From a virus: a stretch of 64,000 bases of DNA. A program made the position numbers and the translations under genes. Within the stretch, counting starts at the first letter, position 1; every line of letters starts with the position of its first letter. The stretch is taken from UHGV virus genome UHGV-0033546. One strand, 5' to 3'. Below the pieces are notes generated by a model. It ran no database searches, was not told where the DNA came from, and saw only the letters and a program-made list of their open reading frames with translations. Below are positions 237-56,908 of this stretch, one piece after another.

Positions 237-890
237 TTAATACTTGCAAGATTTCACAGTTTCAATGAAAACATTTTTAGCTTTCTGTGAATCAATATTT
301 AAAATTTTTCTATAAGCCTTTAACTTTATAGAATAATTATTCCAGACTAAATTATCAGTCTGTTCATCATGTTTATCAATTATATTTAAAAACGAATCAA
401 GCAAGATAAACGTCTCAAACGAAATTATGTTCGATTGAAGTAGTTTAAAAATATAACTTGACTGAACCTTTGGATTATATTCAAAAATTTCTTTAAAAGC
501 AGAAACTTCAACTTTTTTACTAAAATAATAAATGTTGCGAATATCTTCTTCAAACTTAAATTTAATTTGCTTTAAGCGTCCGATATATTCACGATAAAAC
601 ACAAGTGCATCAGCGTCAGAGATGTCACCAATCCAAGCATCTTGGTTAGCAACCAAATTGCTTATAAAGATTAAAGCAAGTTCCTTTAATTTATATTTTT
701 CTGATAACTTCTGAAAAAAATACTTATCCCTTCGCTTTTGATAAGCGGCATCAGACACCCGCATGCACCAATTATACTTAATTACATCATACTTTCCATT
801 CATATGTTGTTTTATCATTAAGTATAATTTATAAACTGATTTACCATCAATGTATCTTTCACCACCAGCAGGCATGCGGAGTTTAATCAT
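237..890 (-). CDS. 59: Helicase loader gp59
   Basis: 217-aa ORF; length, sequence and position next to 33/dsbA/rnh match T4 gp59 from memory. Confidence 0.9.
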   Translation of the reverse strand: MIKLRMPAGGERYIDGKSVYKLYLMIKQHMNGKYDVIKYNWCMRVSDAAYQKRRDKYFFQKLSEKYKLKELALIFISNLVANQDAWIGDISDADALVFYREYIGRLKQIKFKFEEDIRNIYYFSKKVEVSAFKEIFEYNPKVQSSYIFKLLQSNIISFETFILLDSFLNIIDKHDEQTDNLVWNNYSIKLKAYRKILNIDSQKAKNVFIETVKSCKY

Positions 891-1225
891 AATAGAAAAT
901 CTAATGTATTAGTTTTTTCACAACGAACGACAGAAGGACGTAAAAGATTTTCGTCAATAGCTTCTGACTGAATTTTTTCAATTATACCCGAAGGAATAAA
1001 TTTAGCAAATTGAGTTTCAGGAATAGAATTTTCTTCTAAGAATGCTGTTGTAGCTTCAAGATAACTCATTCCAAACTCTTCTACCATTTTTTCAATGATA
1101 AATCCATTTTCTTGACGATCAAGAAGCTTTGCTATTTCATCCTTTTCTTTCTTAATTGAAAGTTCTTTTTCTGAAAGACCGGCCTCATCGACCGGACGAA
1201 TATCATTTAGAGAAAACTGTGTCAT
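887..1225 (-). CDS. 33: Late transcription co-activator gp33
   Basis: ORF track gives 115 aa; start moved to second Met (MTQFSLNDIRPVDE...) giving 112 aa as in T4 gp33; start overlaps dsbA 3' end. Confidence 0.85.
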   Translation of the reverse strand: MTQFSLNDIRPVDEAGLSEKELSIKKEKDEIAKLLDRQENGFIIEKMVEEFGMSYLEATTAFLEENSIPETQFAKFIPSGIIEKIQSEAIDENLLRPSVVRCEKTNTLDFLL

Positions 1226-1472
1226 AAAGTTCAACTACCTCTTCAGTTTCAGCTTCAAACACATCACGGTTATCTTTATGATACAAAGCTAACAGACGAT
1301 TAAACATCTTGCCATCAACACCAAGTTCATCTTTGGCGCGAATTCGAATATCTTTAATCAATTCATTATAACCGGAAATTTTCAGTTTATGATCAGATGC
1401 TTCTTTAATAAATTTAGCCAAATCTTCGCCATGGATAGCTTCATCAAATTCAACCATTTCTTTTTTAGCCAT
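1203..1472 (-). CDS. dsbA: Double-stranded DNA-binding protein DsbA
   Basis: 89-aa ORF between 33 and rnh as in T4. Confidence 0.8.
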   Translation of the reverse strand: MAKKEMVEFDEAIHGEDLAKFIKEASDHKLKISGYNELIKDIRIRAKDELGVDGKMFNRLLALYHKDNRDVFEAETEEVVELYDTVFSK

Positions 1473-2502: not shown

Positions 2503-5500
2503 ATGGCCGAGATTAAAAGAAAGTTCAGAGCGGAAGACGGTCTGGACGCAGGTGGCGATAAAATAATCAACGTAGCTTTAGCTGATCGTACCGTAGGAAC
2601 TGACGGTGTTAACGTTGATTACTTAATTCAAGAAAACACAGTTCAACAATATGATCCAACTCGTGGATATTTAAAAGATTTTGTAATCATTTATGATAAC
2701 CGCTTTTGGGCTGCTATAAATGATATTCCAAAACCGGCAGGAGCTTTTAATAGCGTACGATGGAGAGCGTTACGTACTGATGCAAACTGGACAACTGTTT
2801 CATCAGGACCGTATCAATTAAAATCAGGCGAATCAATTTCGGTTAACACTGCAGCTGGTAATGACATTACATTTACTTTGCCATCTTCTCCAATTGATGG
2901 TGATACTATAGTTCTCCAAGATATTGGAGGAAAACCTGGAGTTAACCAGGTTTTAATTACAGCTCCGGTACAAAGCATTGTAAACTTCAGAGGTCAACAA
3001 GTACGCTCAGTACTAATGACTCATCCAAAATCACAGATAGTTTTAATTTTTAGTAATCGTCTGTGGCAAATGTATGTTGCTGATTATAGCAGAGAAGCGG
3101 CAGTTGTAACGCCAGCGAGTCTTTATCAAGCGCAATCAAACGATTTTATCGTGCGTAGATTTACTTCTGCTTCAGCAATTAATATTAAACTTCCGAGATT
3201 TGCTAATCACGGGGATATCATTAATTTCGTTGATTTGGATAAATTAAATCCTCTTTATCATACAATTGTTACTACATATGATGAAACGACTTCAGTGCAA
3301 GAAGTTGGAACTCATTCCATTGAAGGCCGTACATCTATTGATGGTTTCTTGATGTTTGATGATAATGAGAAACTGTGGAGATTGTTTGACGGGGATAGTA
3401 AAGCCCGTTTACGTATCATAACGACTAATTCAAACATTCGTCCAAATGAAGAAGTTATGGTATTTGGTGCGAATAATGGAACAACTCAAACGATTGAACT
3501 TCAGCTTCCGACCGATATTTCCATTGGTGATACTGTTAAAATTTCCATGAATTATATGAGAAAAGGACAAACAGTTAAAATCAAAGCTGCTGGTGAAGAT
3601 AAAATTGCTTCTTCAGTTCAATTGCTGCAATTCCCAAAACGTTCAGAATATCCGCCTGAAACTAAATGGGTGACTGTTCAAGAATTAGTTTTTAATGGCG
3701 AAACCAATTATGTTCCAGTTTTACAGCTTGCTTATATCGAAGATTCCGATGGAAAATATTGGGTTGTACAGCAAAACGTTCCAACTGTAGAAAGAGTAGA
3801 CTCTTTAAATAATTCTACCAGAGCAAGATTAGGCGTAATTGCTTTAGCTACACAGGCTCAAGCTAATGCAGATTTAGAAAATTCTCCACAAAAAGAATTA
3901 GCAATTACTCCAGAAACGTTAGCTAATCGTACTGCTACAGAAACTCGCAGAGGTATTGCAAGAATAGCAACAACTGCACAAGTTAACCAGGATACTACAT
4001 TCTCTTTTGCAGATGACCTTATCATCACTCCTAAAAAGCTGAATGAAAGAACTGCTACAGAAACTCGCAGGGGTGTCGCTGAAATTGCTACGCAGCAGGA
4101 AACTAACACAGGTACTGATGATACTACAATCATCACTCCTAAAAAGCTTCAAGCTCGTCAAGGTTCTGAGTCATTATCTGGTATTGTAACTTTTGTATCT
4201 ACTGCAGGTGCTACTCCAGCTTCTAGTCGTGAATTAAATGGTACAAATGTTTATAATAAAAATACTAATAATTTAGTAGTTTCACCTAAAGCCTTGGACC
4301 AGTATAAAGCTACTCCAACACAACAAGGTGCGGTAATTTTAGCAGTTGAAAGTGAAGTAATTGCTGGACAAAGCCAAGAAGGATGGGCAAATGCGGTTGT
4401 AACGCCAGAAACGTTACATAAAAAGACATCAACTGATGGAAGAATTGGTTTAATTGAAATTGCTACGCAAAGTGAAGTTAATACAGGAACTGATTATACT
4501 CGTGCAGTCACTCCTAAAACTTTAAATGACCGTAAAGCAACTGAAAGTTTAAGTGGTATAGCTGAAATTGCTACACAAGTTGAATTCGACGCAGGCGTCG
4601 ACGATACTCGTATCTCTACACCATTAAAAATTAAAACTAGATTTAATAGTACTGATCGTACTTCTGTTGTTGCTCTATCTGGATTAGTTGAATCAGGAAC
4701 TCTCTGGGACCATTATACCCTTAATATTCTTGAAGCAAATGAGACACAACGTGGTACACTTCGTGTGGCTACACAAGTTGAAGCTACTGCAGGAACATTA
4801 GATAATGTTTTAATAACTCCTAAAAAGCTTTTAGGTACTAAATCTACCGAATCGCAGGAAGGTGTTATTAAAGTTGCAACTCAGTCTGAAACTGTGACTG
4901 GAACGTCAGCAAATACTGCTGTATCTCCAAAAAATTTAAAATGGATTGTGCAGAGTGAACCTACTTGGGCAGCTACTACCCTGGTAAGAGGTTTTGTTAA
5001 AACTTCATCTGGTTCAATTACATTCGTTGGTAATGATACAGTTGGGTCAACGCAGTCATTAGAATTATACGAAAAAAATAGCTATGCAGTATCGCCATAT
5101 GAATTAAACCGTGTATTAGCAAATTATTTGCCGTTAAAAGCAAAAGCTGCAGATAGTAATTTATTAGATGGTCTAGATTCATCTCAGTTCATTCGTAGGG
5201 ATATTGCGCAGACGGTTAATGGTTCACTAACCTTAACCCAACAAACGAATCTGAGTGCCCCTCTTGTATCATCTAGTACTGCTACGTTTGGTGGGTCAGT
5301 TTCAGCAAATAGTACATTAACTATTTCTAATACTGGAACAGCAACTCGATTGATTTTTGAGAAAGGACCTCAAACTGGAACAAACCCAGCCCAAACGATG
5401 ACTGTCAGAGTGTGGGGAAATCAATTTAGTGGGGAATCAGACACGACACGTTCTACTGTATTTGAAGTTAGTGATGAAACATCTAGTCATTTTTATTCTC

Positions 5501-12376: not shown

Positions 12377-12406
12377 TTTGAATAAATACCCTTAAAAGGA
12401 GGGTCT

Positions 12407-13063
12407 ATGGCAGCACCTAGAATATCATTTTCGCCCTCTGATATTCTATTTGGTGTTCTAGATCGCTTGTTCAAAGATAATGCTACCGGGAAAGTTCTTG
12501 CTTCCCGGGTAGCTGTCGTAATTCTTTTGTTTATGATGGCGATTGTTTGGTATAGGGGAGATAGTTTCTTTGAGTACTATAAGCAATCAAAGTATGAAAC
12601 ATACAGTGAAATTATTGAAAAGGAAAGAAATGCACGCTTTGAATCTGTCGCCCTGGAACAACTCCAGATAGTTCATATATCATCTGAGGCAGACTTTAGT
12701 GCGGTGTATTCTTTCCGCCCTAAAAACTTAAACTATTTTGTTGATATTATAGCATATGAAGGAAAATTACCTTCAACAATAAGTGAAAAATCGCTTGGAG
12801 GATATCCTGTTGATAAAACTATGGATGAATATGCAGTTCATTTAAATGGACGTCATTATTATTCCGACTCAAAATTTGCTTTTTTACCAACTAAAAAGCC
12901 TACTCCCGAAATAAACTACATGTACAGTTGTCCATATTTTAATTTGGATAATATCTATGCTGGAACGATAACCATGTACTGGTATAGAAATGATCATATA
13001 AGTAATGACCGCCTTGAATCAATATGTGCTCAGGCGGCCAGAATATTAGGAAGGGCTAAATAA
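12407..13063 (+). CDS. t: Holin T
   Basis: 218 aa; one N-terminal transmembrane segment plus large C-terminal domain; position after 38. Confidence 0.9.
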   Translation: MAAPRISFSPSDILFGVLDRLFKDNATGKVLASRVAVVILLFMMAIVWYRGDSFFEYYKQSKYETYSEIIEKERNARFESVALEQLQIVHISSEADFSAVYSFRPKNLNYFVDIIAYEGKLPSTISEKSLGGYPVDKTMDEYAVHLNGRHYYSDSKFAFLPTKKPTPEINYMYSCPYFNLDNIYAGTITMYWYRNDHISNDRLESICAQAARILGRAK

Positions 13064-17703: not shown

Positions 17704-17781
17704 TTAGCGTCCGAAGACGCCTTTAGTTTTAAAATTATTACGATAGAATTGCATCACATGTTCGTTATGAAAATTACTCAT
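17704..17781 (-). CDS. stp: Stp peptide (activator of host PrrC anticodon nuclease)
   Basis: 25-aa [28 protein letters not shown], near-identical to T4 Stp as I recall it; start overlaps ndd stop. Confidence 0.8.
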
Positions 17782-37021: not shown

Positions 37022-37029
37022 TATTTATA
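37022..37029 (-). promoter_or_regulatory. T4 late promoter for soc
   Basis: minus strand TATAAATA about 30 nt upstream of the soc ATG. Confidence 0.65.
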
Positions 37030-37032
37030 TCA

Positions 37033-37551
37033 TTAATAACCTCTGTCTTGACGTGCGAAATTTTCTGCATTTTTCAGATAATAAAGTTTAAAGATTTCTT
37101 CAGCAGTAAGACCAAGACCTTGAAACATATTCAGAACGAAATGAAGAATATCAATCATTTCAAATTTAATTTCCAACTGGTCTTGCGGAGACAAATCAGT
37201 AATCAGAGTTTCACGGCGTTCACCATGTTGCGACTTCCAAGGTTTCCATACAGCAGATGCATCTTTTTCGCCATTGCTCATACCACCAAGAGAAGTCAGA
37301 AGTTCACGGAATTCATCATCAATATAGTCTTTCTGATTACGTAGCCAATCAACAACTTCACCGGCAGTAGCCAAATCATCAGGATGACGGTTATATTCAG
37401 GTTTATCTTTAGCTAAACGAACCTGTAAAGATTTCTGCATATCAAGCATAACCTGCAGCGGGTCTTTTTCATCACCGAGAATATCCCAGTATTCATTTTG
37501 AGCTTTATCAGCGCCTTCGATCAGTTGTGAACATTCGTTAAAGTATGCCAT
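37033..37551 (-). CDS. 56: dCTPase/dUTPase gp56 (MazG-like)
   Basis: ORF-track 203 aa trimmed to start MAYFNECSQLIEG (172 aa); matches T4 gp56 from memory. Confidence 0.9.
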   Translation of the reverse strand: MAYFNECSQLIEGADKAQNEYWDILGDEKDPLQVMLDMQKSLQVRLAKDKPEYNRHPDDLATAGEVVDWLRNQKDYIDDEFRELLTSLGGMSNGEKDASAVWKPWKSQHGERRETLITDLSPQDQLEIKFEMIDILHFVLNMFQGLGLTAEEIFKLYYLKNAENFARQDRGY

Positions 37552-37622
37552 TATTTTTCCTTTCAATTCATGGGTTAGTAGATTAATTATACAATAAATA
37601 TATAAAGCAATAAGGAGGACAT

Positions 37623-37823
37623 ATGGTACAAAAATTAATGGCACTTGTCAATGCCATAAAAGGTAATAAAAAGCGTATAGCTTTTACTATTTCTGCTATG
37701 GTAGGAATTTTACTCTGGAACTTTATTTTATCGCCAATTGCTATTGCTCATGGCGTCAATATTCCAGTAGTTACTCTTGATACATTCGTAGATTTAGCAT
37801 TTGCTTTAGTTGGGCTAATTTAA
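37623..37823 (+). CDS. Plus-strand small membrane protein (66 aa) between 56 and 61
   Basis: AAGGAGG RBS 7 nt before ATG; hydrophobic; opposite orientation to all neighbours. Confidence 0.5.
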   Translation: MVQKLMALVNAIKGNKKRIAFTISAMVGILLWNFILSPIAIAHGVNIPVVTLDTFVDLAFALVGLI

Positions 37824-38848
37824 ATTTTGGCATATTTAGATAGCCGCATTTTAGCCATTAACCCCTGGGCAATATTATTTTTCATATATTCCATAATTTG
37901 TTCAGGGGTTGCACCTTCCTTTCTAATCATATCATTAACATCTTTTGATTTCCAGGGAGATTTATCCCAGAACATAACCCTTTCTCCTGCATTGACTAAT
38001 TTAGTCATTCGCTTAATAGTGTCAGGATGACGAGGTTCATTATCTAAGACCCACACACGTCTATCTTTAAATGGAACAATTTCTAGGTCTAATTGACCAC
38101 CCGTAATAGCTATACCATTTTCAATAAAAAGTGAATCTATAGGTCCTTCTAGAACATATACATCACCATCTTTAACTCGTTCGACTCCATATATTTTTGT
38201 TGCCTCAGGATAAGCTTTAATGGTGATATATTTTTGAGGAGCATCTTTCTTTAATGCACGTCCTTGAAAAGACTCAGCTTTTCCATTAGCATTATAAATT
38301 GGAATAACAAGACGAGGCTCAGAAATTTCCTTTTTGTATGTTCCTGGTGCTATACTATTAACCAATTTTGGCCATTCAGTTGTAAACCAAAGATATTTCC
38401 ATTTATCCTTTGGAATACAACGAGCTTTTACGTATTTTATAATTGGATGGTCTTCCGCCAGTTTATCTAATCTAACACATGACGGAAGAGATTTAATTAT
38501 TTTCTTCTCAGGCTGTTTAGGAAGTTCTTTAGGTTTTTCTACTGGACGACTTTTACCTTTTTCTTTTCTTATTTCAAAGATATACTCGCGATATAAATCA
38601 GGTTCAAACTCCTTTAAATATATTCCGATTGGTGCATGATAGTTACAGTTATAACAATGAATATTTCCTTCATTATTATCGCCATAATACCATCCACGGG
38701 CTTTATTTTGATCGGTTTTTGAATCTCCACAAACAGGGCATCTAAACCGCAATTTAAAAGTTGAACTATTATTTACTTGTGTGAATTTAGGTAAATGAGC
38801 CAATGCACGGTATGCAAACTCATTATCAATCCAAGGTATTGATGACAT
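37820..38848 (-). CDS. 61: DNA primase gp61
   Basis: 342 aa; zinc ribbon CPVCGD...HCYNC plus TOPRIM; T4 gp61 length. Confidence 0.95.
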   Translation of the reverse strand: MSSIPWIDNEFAYRALAHLPKFTQVNNSSTFKLRFRCPVCGDSKTDQNKARGWYYGDNNEGNIHCYNCNYHAPIGIYLKEFEPDLYREYIFEIRKEKGKSRPVEKPKELPKQPEKKIIKSLPSCVRLDKLAEDHPIIKYVKARCIPKDKWKYLWFTTEWPKLVNSIAPGTYKKEISEPRLVIPIYNANGKAESFQGRALKKDAPQKYITIKAYPEATKIYGVERVKDGDVYVLEGPIDSLFIENGIAITGGQLDLEIVPFKDRRVWVLDNEPRHPDTIKRMTKLVNAGERVMFWDKSPWKSKDVNDMIRKEGATPEQIMEYMKNNIAQGLMAKMRLSKYAKI

Positions 38849-39016: not shown

Positions 39017-39373
39017 TTAACCTCTATTCATAAAAGCATTAAAAATTTGGTCATCAATCGATGGAATAGCAACTTTTTCTGCATCATTTAGCAAATCATT
39101 AATTTCATCAGATAGCATAACACATGTACCTTTATTTCCTGTAATTGTTACTGCACAATTACGAACGTTTTCTTTATCAAATTTTAGGTTAATATTTTCG
39201 TAGTGAAAATCCTTTAATGCCGAATATATTTTTAAAATGAAATTGTCTTTTACTACAATAAACCCAACCTCGCTATTAAAACGTGGTTCATGGAAGCTGT
39301 AATAAATCTTTTCATCTATGAAATCGTATGAAATTTTTTCCAATTTTAAATATGAAAATTCAGAACTATACAT
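39017..39373 (-). CDS. Hypothetical protein 61.2-like (118 aa)
   Basis: ORF. Confidence 0.5.
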   Translation of the reverse strand: MYSSEFSYLKLEKISYDFIDEKIYYSFHEPRFNSEVGFIVVKDNFILKIYSALKDFHYENINLKFDKENVRNCAVTITGNKGTCVMLSDEINDLLNDAEKVAIPSIDDQIFNAFMNRG

Positions 39374-50545: not shown

Positions 50546-51232
50546 TTAAAAATCATGGGTAGAATCAGCTTCAAGAGCTACTACATAATTCGCGTGTTCA
50601 CCTTCAAATTTAGCAGCACCTTGTTTACCTTTTGCCCAGAGCAGAAGTTTATAATTTCCTGGTTGCATTTTCATATTTGCCATATTGATAATGAAATTAA
50701 ATGTATTTTCACCATCATAATCACCAAGATTCAAAGAATATTTAACACGGGTCAGAGCAGAATCTTCTACTTTATTAAAACCGTTAATTACGATTTTACC
50801 TTCTTTTACCGTGATAGCAATTGTATCAATTTGCAGACCACGAGATACACGCAACAGTTGTTGAAGGTCTTCAGCTTTAATTTCAGTAACAACAGATGCT
50901 ACCGGGAATGGAATTGGTTTATTAGGAGCAACTACTGTACTCGGATCGGCTGCTGGCCAAAAAATTGTTGAACGAGCATCAGCAATTTTAATATTTCCAT
51001 CTTCTGATTGGGAAATTTCTGCATCATCATTAACTAGGGACAGAATACCGAGAAAACCGTTCAAATCGTAAATTGCTACATCAAAATCAATAGTGTCAGA
51101 AATATTTGCTTCCGCATAAGTTGTACCATTAACTGCGCGAGTCATAATAAATTGACCAGATTTAAGCATAATACCGGAGTTAATAGTAGCGAAATTTTTC
51201 AAAATATTCAGTGTGTCTTTAGATAATTTCAT
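50546..51232 (-). CDS. 45: Sliding clamp gp45
   Basis: 228 aa; T4 gp45 length. Confidence 0.9.
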   Translation of the reverse strand: MKLSKDTLNILKNFATINSGIMLKSGQFIMTRAVNGTTYAEANISDTIDFDVAIYDLNGFLGILSLVNDDAEISQSEDGNIKIADARSTIFWPAADPSTVVAPNKPIPFPVASVVTEIKAEDLQQLLRVSRGLQIDTIAITVKEGKIVINGFNKVEDSALTRVKYSLNLGDYDGENTFNFIINMANMKMQPGNYKLLLWAKGKQGAAKFEGEHANYVVALEADSTHDF

Positions 51233-52116
51233 TTCAATTTCCTATTTACATAATAGTTAGACCAGGACCGTACAGCACCCTGATAAGATTCGTCGTTAAA
51301 CCCATTAGCTACTGCAATTTTACGAAATTTATTATAACTCGGTTTTCCGTAAGCATGCCATAAAGATTTTAATTCATCTTCATGTTCAATCCAAGTTCCT
51401 CTAGCTTTAGATTTTCTAAATTTTGATTTGAATTCCGGTGAATTATTTCTAACAGTTGCTTGAATTGAAGCTCTCTGTCTTCTTTCAGCATTATTCCATA
51501 ACTCTTTTTGAGATTTAGAAATTTTTGATTTTACACTTTCTGAATTCATTATATCACTAAACTTTTTAGCATAACTGCAATCAAGATATTTCAATTTCAT
51601 CTTATTTGAAAGTTTAAGCTTTTTCTCATCGGTCCAGTGATTCTTCATTGAATTAGATATTTTGTATTTTACGTCAGAACTATGTTTGTAACCTTTACGA
51701 ATACCAACATAATCGGGCGTAATTTCAGATTGCGAAAGCTTTACAATTTTTCCAGTTAAAACATTTTTATATGTTCCATATCCTTTAGCGCCAATTAAAG
51801 TATTTTCATCTGCGTATGCTTTATTAAAATATTTTATATTACTTTTTGCTTTAACTTTTAATTGAAAAAATCTTTCCAATTTTCTTGGATCTAATATAGT
51901 TTCAGCTAAAATTTTGACGGTATATTTAGTGGTTTTAATAAGCTCAAAATATTCATCGCTATAACTCGATGACACGCTTCCAGTATAAATCTTTCCAGCT
52001 GAATCAATTATATTTGTTCCATCGAAAATTGCGTCAATTTTCGAACCTATATAATAACATGGAAAAATATTTTTAGCTTCCCGCTCTGGAAAGCTAATAA
52101 GATATACTAAATTCAT
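51229..52116 (-). CDS. Freestanding GIY-YIG-like homing endonuclease (seg-like) with NUMOD3-like repeats
   Basis: 295 aa between 45 and rpbA; N-terminus MNLVY...YYIGSK; two K-SxEx-KIS-S-K-W repeats; paralogous to ORF at 1-234. Confidence 0.6.
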
Positions 52117-54453: not shown

Positions 54454-55308
54454 TCACAATGAAGAAAATTCTTTAACTAAAGCCTGTAATGAAGCCTCTA
54501 TTGGATATCCATTCTTAACTAACATTTTCCTAAACATCACATGTTTAGGACGATTATATGATATCCACAATTCATACAATTTATCTTTATTATCCCAATG
54601 ATAGCCTTTTCGTCGAGATGCTATATGAGCTTTTCTAATCTCCGGATTTTTCCAACTAGCAGCTACTGAATTTAATATAGCTATTTTATATTCAGGTTTT
54701 GATAAAGCAGCACGAACAGCCTTTTGGTGTTTAATTTTATTTTCTTCGTTATTAAACCATTCCCTTGAAGCCATTGAAATTTTTTGTTTTGTTTTAAAAT
54801 TATTTAATCTTTCTTTGTTATCTTTCCTATTTTTTGCTACTGAAAAATATTTTAATGCCCTTTCTCTAGCAACATTTCTATTTTGTGGATTTGAATAATA
54901 CTGTTGAAGCCTTTTTGATATTGTGTCACTTACATCCTGTCTTATAAAACTATATTCAGCAGCTATTAAATCAACTTCGGCTAAAGATAAATTTTTATAT
55001 GTTTTTCCTGACATCATTCTATTTAAAGCATTTAGCATTTTTCCATTTTTACCTTTTGCTAATAAGAAATGTGCTTTGAAATGATTAAAATGACTTAAAT
55101 TAACTAAATTCCATGTAGATTTTAAATATTCAGGAAATATTGATTTAGGAAGCACGTGGTGTGCTTCCGTTTTACCTGGAGTTTTAACAGTTGAATTCAT
55201 AGAAATAAAATTAATATAAGACTTGGCGTCTTCTTCACTCAACGCTAATTTTTCAACTAATTCCTTTATTAAAAATTCATCATTAATATCAAGTTTAAAA
55301 TTCTTCAC
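54454..55308 (-). CDS. Freestanding HNH homing endonuclease (mob-like)
   Basis: 284 aa between 47 and 46; HNH motif AHHVLPKS...NLVNLSHFNHFKAH; NUMOD-like basic repeats. Confidence 0.65.
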   Translation of the reverse strand: MKNFKLDINDEFLIKELVEKLALSEEDAKSYINFISMNSTVKTPGKTEAHHVLPKSIFPEYLKSTWNLVNLSHFNHFKAHFLLAKGKNGKMLNALNRMMSGKTYKNLSLAEVDLIAAEYSFIRQDVSDTISKRLQQYYSNPQNRNVARERALKYFSVAKNRKDNKERLNNFKTKQKISMASREWFNNEENKIKHQKAVRAALSKPEYKIAILNSVAASWKNPEIRKAHIASRRKGYHWDNKDKLYELWISYNRPKHVMFRKMLVKNGYPIEASLQALVKEFSSL

Positions 55309-55755: not shown

Positions 55756-56771
55756 TGTGTTGCCTCTACATATAACTGATTTGCATATTGAATAAGTGCT
55801 TCGCGATCAGAATCAGTGATGTCTGGAATTGCATTAATGTATTCTTCCATCAATGTCTGGAGAGATTGAACTTCAACTTCTTCACTATCATCTGACTCGA
55901 CAGAGTTATCAATCTTTGACACAACTCGTAACGAATGCACAACTTTTTCTAGTTCGGATTCGAACTTCGTTAGATTTTTGTCTACTTCAGTTACTATAAC
56001 ACGTACTGATAGATTTGTAAAATCTTTATAGTCAATTTTCCCCTTAAATGGATATTGAATTCGACGATGCCAGGTGGTGTTGTTTGGAATAAATTCCATT
56101 CGTTCTGTTTCTGTATCAAACATCCAGAACCCGCGAGGGTCATTCTCGTCACCTGCAGTTAGTGTCCATGGTGTCCCAATATATCTGACGTTAGCAGCCT
56201 CAGAGATAGTATGGAAGTGACCAGACCACACCTCTTTATAAGTCTTAAGGAAATCAGGTTCAAGACCGTGAGATTTCATTCCTTTATAAAAATAAAATCC
56301 ATTCAGTTCCCAGTGACCGACACAAAAAGAAGCAGATGAAGTTTTGATATGCTCAAGAATTTCACCAGTATTTTCTTCGCACATCCAGGGAATTAAATCA
56401 ATCAAACATCCGTCAAAATCTACTGTGGTAGGCTTATCATATACTTTAACATTAGGATATTTAGCCAAAAGCTCAGTAGAAGCATTTGGATGCATTACAT
56501 TTTTGTAGTGGAGATCGTGATTTCCTACAATAGTATGTAGGGTAATACCAGCATCATCAAGCATTTGAACTATTTCACGAGCGAACTCCATAGTTTTATG
56601 TGTGATTGCTTTTCGCACATCAAAAATATCGCCATATTGAATCCATGTAGTAATTCCATTTTTCTTAGAATATTCTATCGCTTGTTTAATTCCATCAATT
56701 TGAATACCGCGAATCCACTCATCATCAGCTTTAACACCTAAATGCCAATCACCTAAATTTAAAATTTTCAT
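55752..56771 (-). CDS. 47: Recombination nuclease subunit gp47 (Mre11/SbcD-like)
   Basis: 339 aa; phosphoesterase motifs (GDWH, GNHD); T4 gp47 length. Confidence 0.95.
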   Translation of the reverse strand: MKILNLGDWHLGVKADDEWIRGIQIDGIKQAIEYSKKNGITTWIQYGDIFDVRKAITHKTMEFAREIVQMLDDAGITLHTIVGNHDLHYKNVMHPNASTELLAKYPNVKVYDKPTTVDFDGCLIDLIPWMCEENTGEILEHIKTSSASFCVGHWELNGFYFYKGMKSHGLEPDFLKTYKEVWSGHFHTISEAANVRYIGTPWTLTAGDENDPRGFWMFDTETERMEFIPNNTTWHRRIQYPFKGKIDYKDFTNLSVRVIVTEVDKNLTKFESELEKVVHSLRVVSKIDNSVESDDSEEVEVQSLQTLMEEYINAIPDITDSDREALIQYANQLYVEATQ

Positions 56772-56908
56772 ATGTCAAGAACCGTCATTGAAATGCAAAA
56801 TAAAATTATTGAAATAAACCCATCTGGTGTGCTAAAGAACCCAATCCAACATGCTCTAGTGAATAAATAAAACGCGAGAAAAAGTATCACATATCCAAGA
56901 AATATCAT
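56768..56908 (-). CDS. Small membrane protein (46 aa)
   Basis: MIFLGYVILFLAFYLFTRACWIGFF...; stop overlaps gene 47 start. Confidence 0.4.
   Translation of the reverse strand: MIFLGYVILFLAFYLFTRACWIGFFSTPDGFISIILFCISMTVLDI

Follow-up and report, generated by a model that had tools for sequence, protein, structure and literature searches.

The 66-codon open reading frame (ORF) located between genes 56 and 61 in the 64-kb stretch of viral DNA analyzed here (the window) is likely to be a genuine, conserved gene that encodes a single-pass inner-membrane protein of PHROG 2024 and that would be expressed late, and we consider this the best explanation of the data overall. By sequence comparison, the ORF is an already annotated, widely conserved hypothetical gene that is present in nearly all T4-type coliphages. 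Of some residual interest are the facts that the T4 reference omits the gene and that comparative data point to an apparently unstudied, late-expressed membrane protein. Since the T4 reference lacks the ORF, transcriptomic, proteomic, and knockdown screens that depend on its annotation are blind to it. As a membrane protein that is universally retained and probably late, in the phage that has been studied most, the product offers functional studies a modest but concrete target.

Locus, coding capacity, and distribution

The window is a T4-type (Tequatrovirus) segment whose nearest records are vB_EcoM_SA20RB and the RB32 group, with ~97% DNA identity at the locus (96.5 to 96.7% for RB32 and RB51 over the ORF region). 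The initial annotation had described a 66-amino-acid hydrophobic ORF with a strong AAGGAGG ribosome binding site that runs against the direction of its neighbors, and this description was borne out in its coordinates, ribosome binding site, hydrophobicity, and orientation (Table 1). Genes 56 and 61 are both on the minus strand, as is soc on the gene 56 side of the ORF, and from ~13.06 kb to the end of the window at 64 kb, all long ORFs with gene-like properties have this orientation. A 203-codon minus-strand frame (37033..37644) that overlaps the start of the ORF was rejected as a separate candidate; it merely extends gene 56 upstream to a GTG, and the alignment with T4 gp56 begins at the ATG at 37551 rather than at the GTG of this longer frame.

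Table 1. Coordinates of the ORF, its predicted segments, and the neighboring features in the window
Feature	Position	Strand	Remarks
Gene 56 (dCTPase), neighbor 5' of the ORF	37033..37551	-	73% identity to T4 gp56
Candidate MotA-type middle promoter for gene 56, GCTTTA-N11-TATAAT	37586..37608	-	Consensus match only
Late-promoter-like box AATAAATA	37593..37600	+	22 nt 5' of the ATG; A(-13) variant of the T4 consensus TATAAATA
Shine-Dalgarno sequence AAGGAGG	37612-37618	+	4 nt 5' of the ORF ATG
CDS, 66-residue membrane protein (predicted)	37623..37823	+	ATG, 66 codons, TAA
Residues 1-18, basic N-terminal segment	37623..37676	+	Net charge +5; predicted helix 2-13; predicted cytoplasmic
Hairpin and U-run inside ORF codons 3-12	37630..37657	-	Stem 37638-37657, codons 6-12
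Residues 19-42, predicted transmembrane helix	37677..37748	+	Holds invariant W32, N33, and P38
Residues 43-66, predicted periplasmic tail	37749..37820	+	Invariant G44 and P48; acidic residue at 52/53
TTAA, overlapping stops of the ORF (+) and gene 61 (-)	37820-37823		4 shared bases
Gene 61 (DNA primase), convergent neighbor	37820..38848	-	98.8% identity to T4 gp61; Pfam DNAG_N

The length of the ORF alone is within chance expectation, and the AT-rich window contains many spurious ORFs of similar size; the argument for its reality therefore comes from conservation and not from length. When synonymous and nonsynonymous changes were counted by the Nei-Gojobori method, the window differed from SA20RB by nine synonymous and no nonsynonymous changes and from T4 by ten synonymous and two nonsynonymous changes (dN/dS of ~0.05). 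The dN/dS ratio was 0.03 to 0.2 in Tequatrovirus and Mosigvirus and reached ~0.7 in close Gaprivervirus pairs, a value derived from few substitutions; between genera, dS was saturated and dN was about 0.41. Variable sites were most numerous at the third codon position (8/2/13 across the three positions in Tequatrovirus and 6/0/13 in Mosigvirus). The ORF frame was the only frame free of stop codons in all 12 lineages, the other five frames being interrupted, and a GGAG-type Shine-Dalgarno sequence was located 2 to 6 nt 5' of the ATG in 14 of the 14 sequences compared. Judged by these comparisons, the ORF is protein-coding and under purifying selection.

A minus-strand hairpin with a U-run within the ORF, a middle promoter just upstream of it, and the unannotated state of the region in the T4 reference would also fit the reading that the ORF is not a gene but a by-product of conserved minus-strand regulatory DNA, namely, the 3' untranslated region of gene 61 with its terminator and the promoters of dam and gene 56. 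However, the protein motifs survive despite saturated dS, and the hairpin within the ORF is confined to Tequatrovirus, whereas the Shine-Dalgarno sequence is kept everywhere. Since the substitutions track the codon phase of the plus-strand ORF frame and since this frame alone is open throughout the 12 lineages, we regard a regulatory by-product as ruled out for practical purposes, with only a very slight chance of being correct.

As a protein-coding gene, the ORF is widespread. It was detected by tblastn in 693 phage records, 503 of them at 90 to 100% protein identity and 190 at 44 to 56%. Given that gp61 was found at an identity of at least 95% in 502 records, relative to 503 for the ORF at 90% or above, the ORF is essentially universal in Tequatrovirus. 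The T4 copy (NC_000866, 17738..17938) is unannotated and would encode a protein 97% identical to that of the window; the ORF is absent from the annotation of both T4 reference records (NC_000866 and AF158101), and one T4 mutant record annotates it. To the question raised by the initial annotation of whether the ORF is a known conserved T-even gene, the answer is thus divided: it is conserved and widely annotated as hypothetical, but the T4 reference annotation omits it, and no function is assigned to it.

The ORF product matched phrog_2024 with an E value of 1.5e-31 (residues 2-66 aligned with positions 1-65 of the 65-position profile), and distant homologues from four other genera matched the same profile (E = 1e-15 to 1e-26). 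All tested homologues fall in phrog_2024, which carries the category "unknown function" and represents the RB32ORF030w/RB69ORF029w family. The RB32ORF030w and RB69ORF029w proteins resemble the ORF product in family, length, position, and orientation beside gene 61, and nothing of substance sets them apart other than the dam-less upstream context of the window copy. When 1.84 billion cluster representatives were searched exhaustively with a profile, the nine matches were all small proteins of the ORF family, which indicates that the family is narrow and lacks an annotated remote relative.

The distant homologues mapped by tblastn to the same position in other enterobacterial T4-type phages, so that homologues are present in 11 genera of this group, Tequatrovirus included. 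The ORF was found on the opposite strand to gene 61 and abutting its 3' end in ST0 (Mosigvirus), TH40 (Gaprivervirus), IME08 (Dhakavirus, where the ORF is unannotated), CkP1 (Karamvirus), Entb_45 (Kanagawavirus), Merlin (Moonvirus), STML-198 (Gelderlandvirus), PM2 (Mosugukvirus), and Marfa (Marfavirus), and it was likewise on the opposite strand in DK-13 (Gaprivervirus) and in KP179 (Jiaodavirus). The 4-nt overlap between the two stop codons recurs in ST0, CkP1, Entb_45, Merlin, STML-198, and Marfa. Exceptions to direct abutment are DK-13, in which a homing endonuclease gene lies between the two, and KP179, in which an 18-nt hairpin does so. The ORF was not found in the T4-like genera Slopekvirus, Lazarusvirus, and Tulanevirus: genes 61 and 56 are only 7 nt apart in Slopekvirus BL02, and nothing comparable to the ORF was detected in Lazarusvirus or Tulanevirus. 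Given that the ORF is missing outside the 11-genus group, it looks like an innovation of the T-even lineage that became wedged between genes 61 and 56.

The predicted membrane protein

The transmembrane prediction proposed in the initial annotation yielded one predicted membrane-spanning segment, residues 19-42, which is the sole segment hydrophobic enough to span a membrane; its best 19-residue stretch (residues 19-37) had a Hessa sum of +0.4 kcal/mol. When the positive-inside rule was applied, the product was predicted to be a single-pass inner-membrane protein with its N terminus inside, its C terminus outside, and a short periplasmic tail. This tail, the last 24 residues, is hydrophobic, has a net charge of -2 with no basic residues, and has an unfavorable insertion energy; a short hydrophobic helix within it (residues 52-63) is too polar to span the membrane. 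An AlphaFold model built from a 20-sequence alignment contained helices at residues 2-13, 16-42, and 52-63 with moderate confidence (mean pLDDT of 75, pTM of 0.45, and a pLDDT of about 80 for helix 16-42).

Six residues are invariant across 12 lineages (W32, N33, P38, G44, P48, and G64), as is the presence of an acidic residue at position 52/53. Based on the mid-membrane asparagine and the conserved juxtamembrane motif, we infer that the protein makes specific helix-helix or partner contacts. Since there is no lysine or arginine after residue 18, trypsin would leave a single hydrophobic peptide of 48 residues, which is easily missed by standard mass spectrometry.

Scans of the ORF product against Pfam and NCBIfam matched no family, a profile search of PDB sequences gave a chance match only (E = 2.1), and a Foldseek comparison of the AlphaFold model with viral structures returned the protein's own family only and nothing informative above E = 0.1. 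Literature searches with RB32ORF030w, RB69ORF029w, the peptide, "dam.1", and "61.-1" retrieved no paper on the ORF, and searches on the ORF names and on T4 small-ORF, Ribo-seq, or retapamulin work retrieved nothing relevant.

A late-promoter-like box, predicted transcript overlap, and possible roles

In the Geiduschek and Kassavetis review, 32 of 50 listed T4 late-promoter sites have the perfect TATAAATA sequence, and the commonest variant, A for T at -13, accounts for 9 of the 50 (PMC2988020). T4 late genes, which depend on gp55, gp33, and gp45, have a TATAAATA-type box nearby, roughly one helical turn before the start of transcription; such a box is found at the ORF in the form of this A(-13) variant, which would place a late transcription start near 37606. 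No perfect TATAAATA lies near the ORF, the nearest plus-strand copy being 30 kb away. The perfect sequence is depleted in the window as a whole (three copies, relative to 10.2 expected from shuffles), and the three copies are located just upstream of the late genes 34 (2461), 36 (7528), and soc (37022-37029, minus strand). NATAAATA has only six plus-strand copies in the 64-kb window, three of which sit 18 to 34 nt before the ATGs of the late genes 34, 36, and holin t. For holin t (12407..13063, Pfam Phage_holin_T), a AATAAATA copy at 12381 precedes the ATG by 18 nt, and holin t and the ORF share the order of AATAAATA, a strong Shine-Dalgarno sequence, and an ATG 18 to 22 nt after the box.

All 12 lineages had a box of this type, 13 to 22 nt 5' of the ATG, amid unrelated surrounding DNA. 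It takes the form of a perfect TATAAATA in IME08, Entb_45, and Marfa, AATAAATA in the window and ST0, GATAAATA in T4, T2, and PM2, CATAAATA in DK-13 and KP179, and ATTAAATA in CkP1, Merlin, and STML-198. The T4 copy occupies 17709-17716 of NC_000866, with a predicted start near 17722. These comparisons provide good comparative evidence that the box is a gp55-type late promoter, with the caveat that, in the window, the AATAAATA box lies within the spacer of a candidate minus-strand middle promoter, which could explain its occurrence in the window but not elsewhere. A plus-strand AATAAATA at 56862, inside a minus-strand ORF (56768..56908), has no ORF downstream, so not every AATAAATA or NATAAATA box of this kind is a promoter. 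Sigma-70-like plus-strand matches inside gene 56 were weak (9/12). We do not claim a plus-strand terminator 3' of the ORF; the stretch that carries this annotation in SA20RB showed no folding advantage over shuffled sequence (z = -0.19).

Two minus-strand elements overlap this region. The candidate middle promoter for gene 56 occupies the same site as an annotated T4 middle promoter in the 97%-identical SA20RB; if both promoters are used, the middle (minus) and late (plus) promoters share the same 23 bp, back-to-back. The second element consists of a hairpin (ATGGCATTGACAAGTGCCAT) and, after it, UUAAUUUUUG; its predicted folding is more favorable than that of shuffled sequence (z = -2.9), and it is annotated as a terminator in SA20RB. 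It is kept in T4, T2, and other Tequatrovirus phages and not in other genera, and it may end gene 61 transcripts within the opposite-strand ORF.

Because the ORF and gene 61 overlap at their stop codons, their transcripts would necessarily overlap, and since the Tequatrovirus hairpin lies past the 3' end of the ORF in the direction of gene 61 transcription, gene 61 mRNA would run antisense to codons 6-66. With this overlap and the hairpin, antisense pairing could affect primase mRNA or regulate the ORF. Changing the box from AATAAATA to AAGCAATA would separate effects of the protein from antisense effects on primase mRNA.

The same features raise the question of whether the locus is an antisense-coupled unit of the type I toxin kind, in which a membrane-toxic peptide is held in check by the complementary 3' end of gene 61 mRNA or in which late transcription silences primase mRNA. 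Hok-type toxins are of similar size and have an N-in, single-pass topology; the ORF product is likewise predicted to be a small, single-pass hydrophobic peptide with its N terminus inside, the overlapping convergent stops are kept in most genera, and the antisense coverage described for Tequatrovirus supplies a plausible overlapping transcript. Nevertheless, we consider a unit of this kind improbable. The ORF product has no sequence similarity to known toxin families in Pfam or NCBIfam, and the ORF persists even where the Jiaodavirus hairpin or the Gaprivervirus homing endonuclease gene separates it from gene 61. Moreover, specific residues of the predicted periplasmic tail are under purifying selection, which speaks for a defined protein interaction rather than for generic membrane damage. 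Hok-type toxins have no homology to the ORF product, which differs from them in its periplasmic motif, and they belong to plasmid or chromosomal addiction modules, whereas the ORF belongs to a phage and is preceded by a late promoter box.

The small size, predicted membrane location, and probable late promoter of the ORF would also suit a holin, and UniRef and BFVD give the name "Holin" to A0A482MZV5, the UniProt entry for a homologue with 91% identity. This label is confined to one automatically named entry, however, and the other members examined are all named "hypothetical." Although the predicted transmembrane segment at residues 19-42 would provide the one or more transmembrane domains expected of a holin, no Pfam holin family matched, and the hydrophobic C terminus with its net charge of -2 is not the charged hydrophilic tail typical of holins. 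Linkage to lysis genes is also missing, as no endolysin or spanin gene adjoins the ORF and its neighbors are the dCTPase and primase genes, and the phage already has holin T (12407..13063). Taken together, we judge it very unlikely that the ORF product is a holin. Holin T is itself a single-pass inner-membrane protein with an N-in/C-out topology, but it has 218 residues and a large periplasmic domain, whereas the ORF product has a 24-residue tail, no sequence similarity to holin T, and a location outside the lysis locus.

The explanation that we prefer, a conserved gene for a late single-pass inner-membrane protein, can be set out as a sequence of predicted steps. RNA polymerase carrying gp55 would transcribe the gene late, with the AATAAATA box at 37593-37600 as the promoter and a start near 37606, and translation would begin from the strong Shine-Dalgarno sequence. 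The basic N terminus would remain in the cytoplasm, residues 19-42 would cross the membrane, and the 24-residue C-terminal tail would be periplasmic. The Trp-Asn pair, Pro38, and the G-x3-P-x3-[LIM]-[DE] motif could then mediate helix-helix or juxtamembrane contacts, whether among copies of the protein or between it and a partner in the membrane.

It is a speculative possibility that the protein modulates an envelope event late in infection, for example, the timing or inhibition of lysis or the protection of the cell against superinfection, as suggested by the probable timing, membrane location, size, and T-even restriction of the ORF, which is next to no lysis gene. That the late 7-kDa inner-membrane protein is an unrecognized element of late envelope control, whether as a partner of holin T, RI, or RIII or as a late superinfection guard, is a slightly more doubtful proposal still; if it is true, the ORF transcript is necessarily antisense to primase mRNA. 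Imm, Ac, and RI are small membrane-anchored proteins of T-even phages that act on the envelope. The ORF product matched no Pfam family at an E value of 10 or below, in a library that includes the Imm, Ac, and RI families. Imm, the product of an early gene, contains two membrane segments, whereas the ORF lies on the strand typical of late genes and is preceded by a late-type box.

Variation between genes 56 and 61 and elsewhere in the window

The initial annotation placed the T4 dam gene in the interval between genes 56 and 61, and the T4 record confirms this, the gene order being soc-segF-56-dam-[309 unannotated bases]-61. The ORF lies inside the unannotated gap. In T2, the order is 56-dam-T2_31-ORF-61, and the annotator of the T2 record remarks that the ORF is "similar to RB69ORF029w; RB32030w." In both phages, therefore, the comparison that the initial annotation had called for places the ORF between dam and gene 61.

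The accompanying claim that the window lacks a Dam-like ORF also held: no Dam homologue was found in the 64-kb window (the best tblastn match to T4 Dam had an E value of 2.9), the pattern [DNS]PP[YFW] gave four incidental matches only, all in short stop-to-stop frames of 17 to 107 codons, and the ORF does not contain the Dam catalytic motif DPPY. The window thus has no dam, and the ORF sits where dam would relative to gene 56, as expected if an orphan or novel gene confined to this phage had replaced dam between genes 56 and 61. T4 and T2 carry both dam and the ORF; the ORF is therefore not a replacement for dam, and its occurrence in 693 records and 11 genera does not allow it to be called an orphan. 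In addition, 344 of the 702 matching records, roughly one-half, share the dam-less, contiguous 56-ORF-61 layout. The orphan reading suggested by the initial annotation consequently has next to no probability. The absence of dam is a common natural variant, which removes a false lead for the window, and the ORF is standard T-even equipment.

It is instead the slot upstream of the ORF that varies: it holds dam in T4, dam and T2_31 in T2, and homing endonuclease genes (mobE) or small ORFs elsewhere, and it is empty in the window. Homology to T4 is lost immediately 5' of the ORF ribosome binding site, and the ORF and gene 61 have 92 to 100% identity to T4 per 100 nt. The result is a mosaic junction between 37033..37551, where gp56 is 73% identical to its T4 counterpart, and 37623..38848, where the ORF and gene 61 are 92 to 100% identical. 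The window lacks segF as well as dam, and soc directly abuts gene 56. In Gaprivervirus DK-13, a homing endonuclease gene (positions 2872..3621 of locus L006) is inserted between the ORF and gene 61, and in Dhakavirus IME08, mobE (positions 701..1357 of locus L023) is inserted between gene 56 and the ORF. These gene orders show that insertions have occurred repeatedly in the interval between genes 56 and 61.

At the 61.2 position, a minus-strand ORF (39017..39373) encodes 118 residues that are 32% identical to T4 gp61.2 (208 residues), and the match of its product to the Pfam profile AdfA (anti-DarT factor A) is confined to the C-terminal half (positions 115-211 of 211; E = 2e-8). By this alignment, it is a short, divergent version of 61.2. 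Two further minus-strand ORFs, one of 295 residues between gene 45 and rpbA (51229..52116) and one of 284 residues after gene 46 (54454..55308), have no significant Pfam match and are probably lineage-specific insertions in the replication/recombination cluster. Lastly, the minus-strand ORF at 56768..56908, between gene 47 and the alpha-glucosyltransferase gene, encodes 46 residues and is very hydrophobic.
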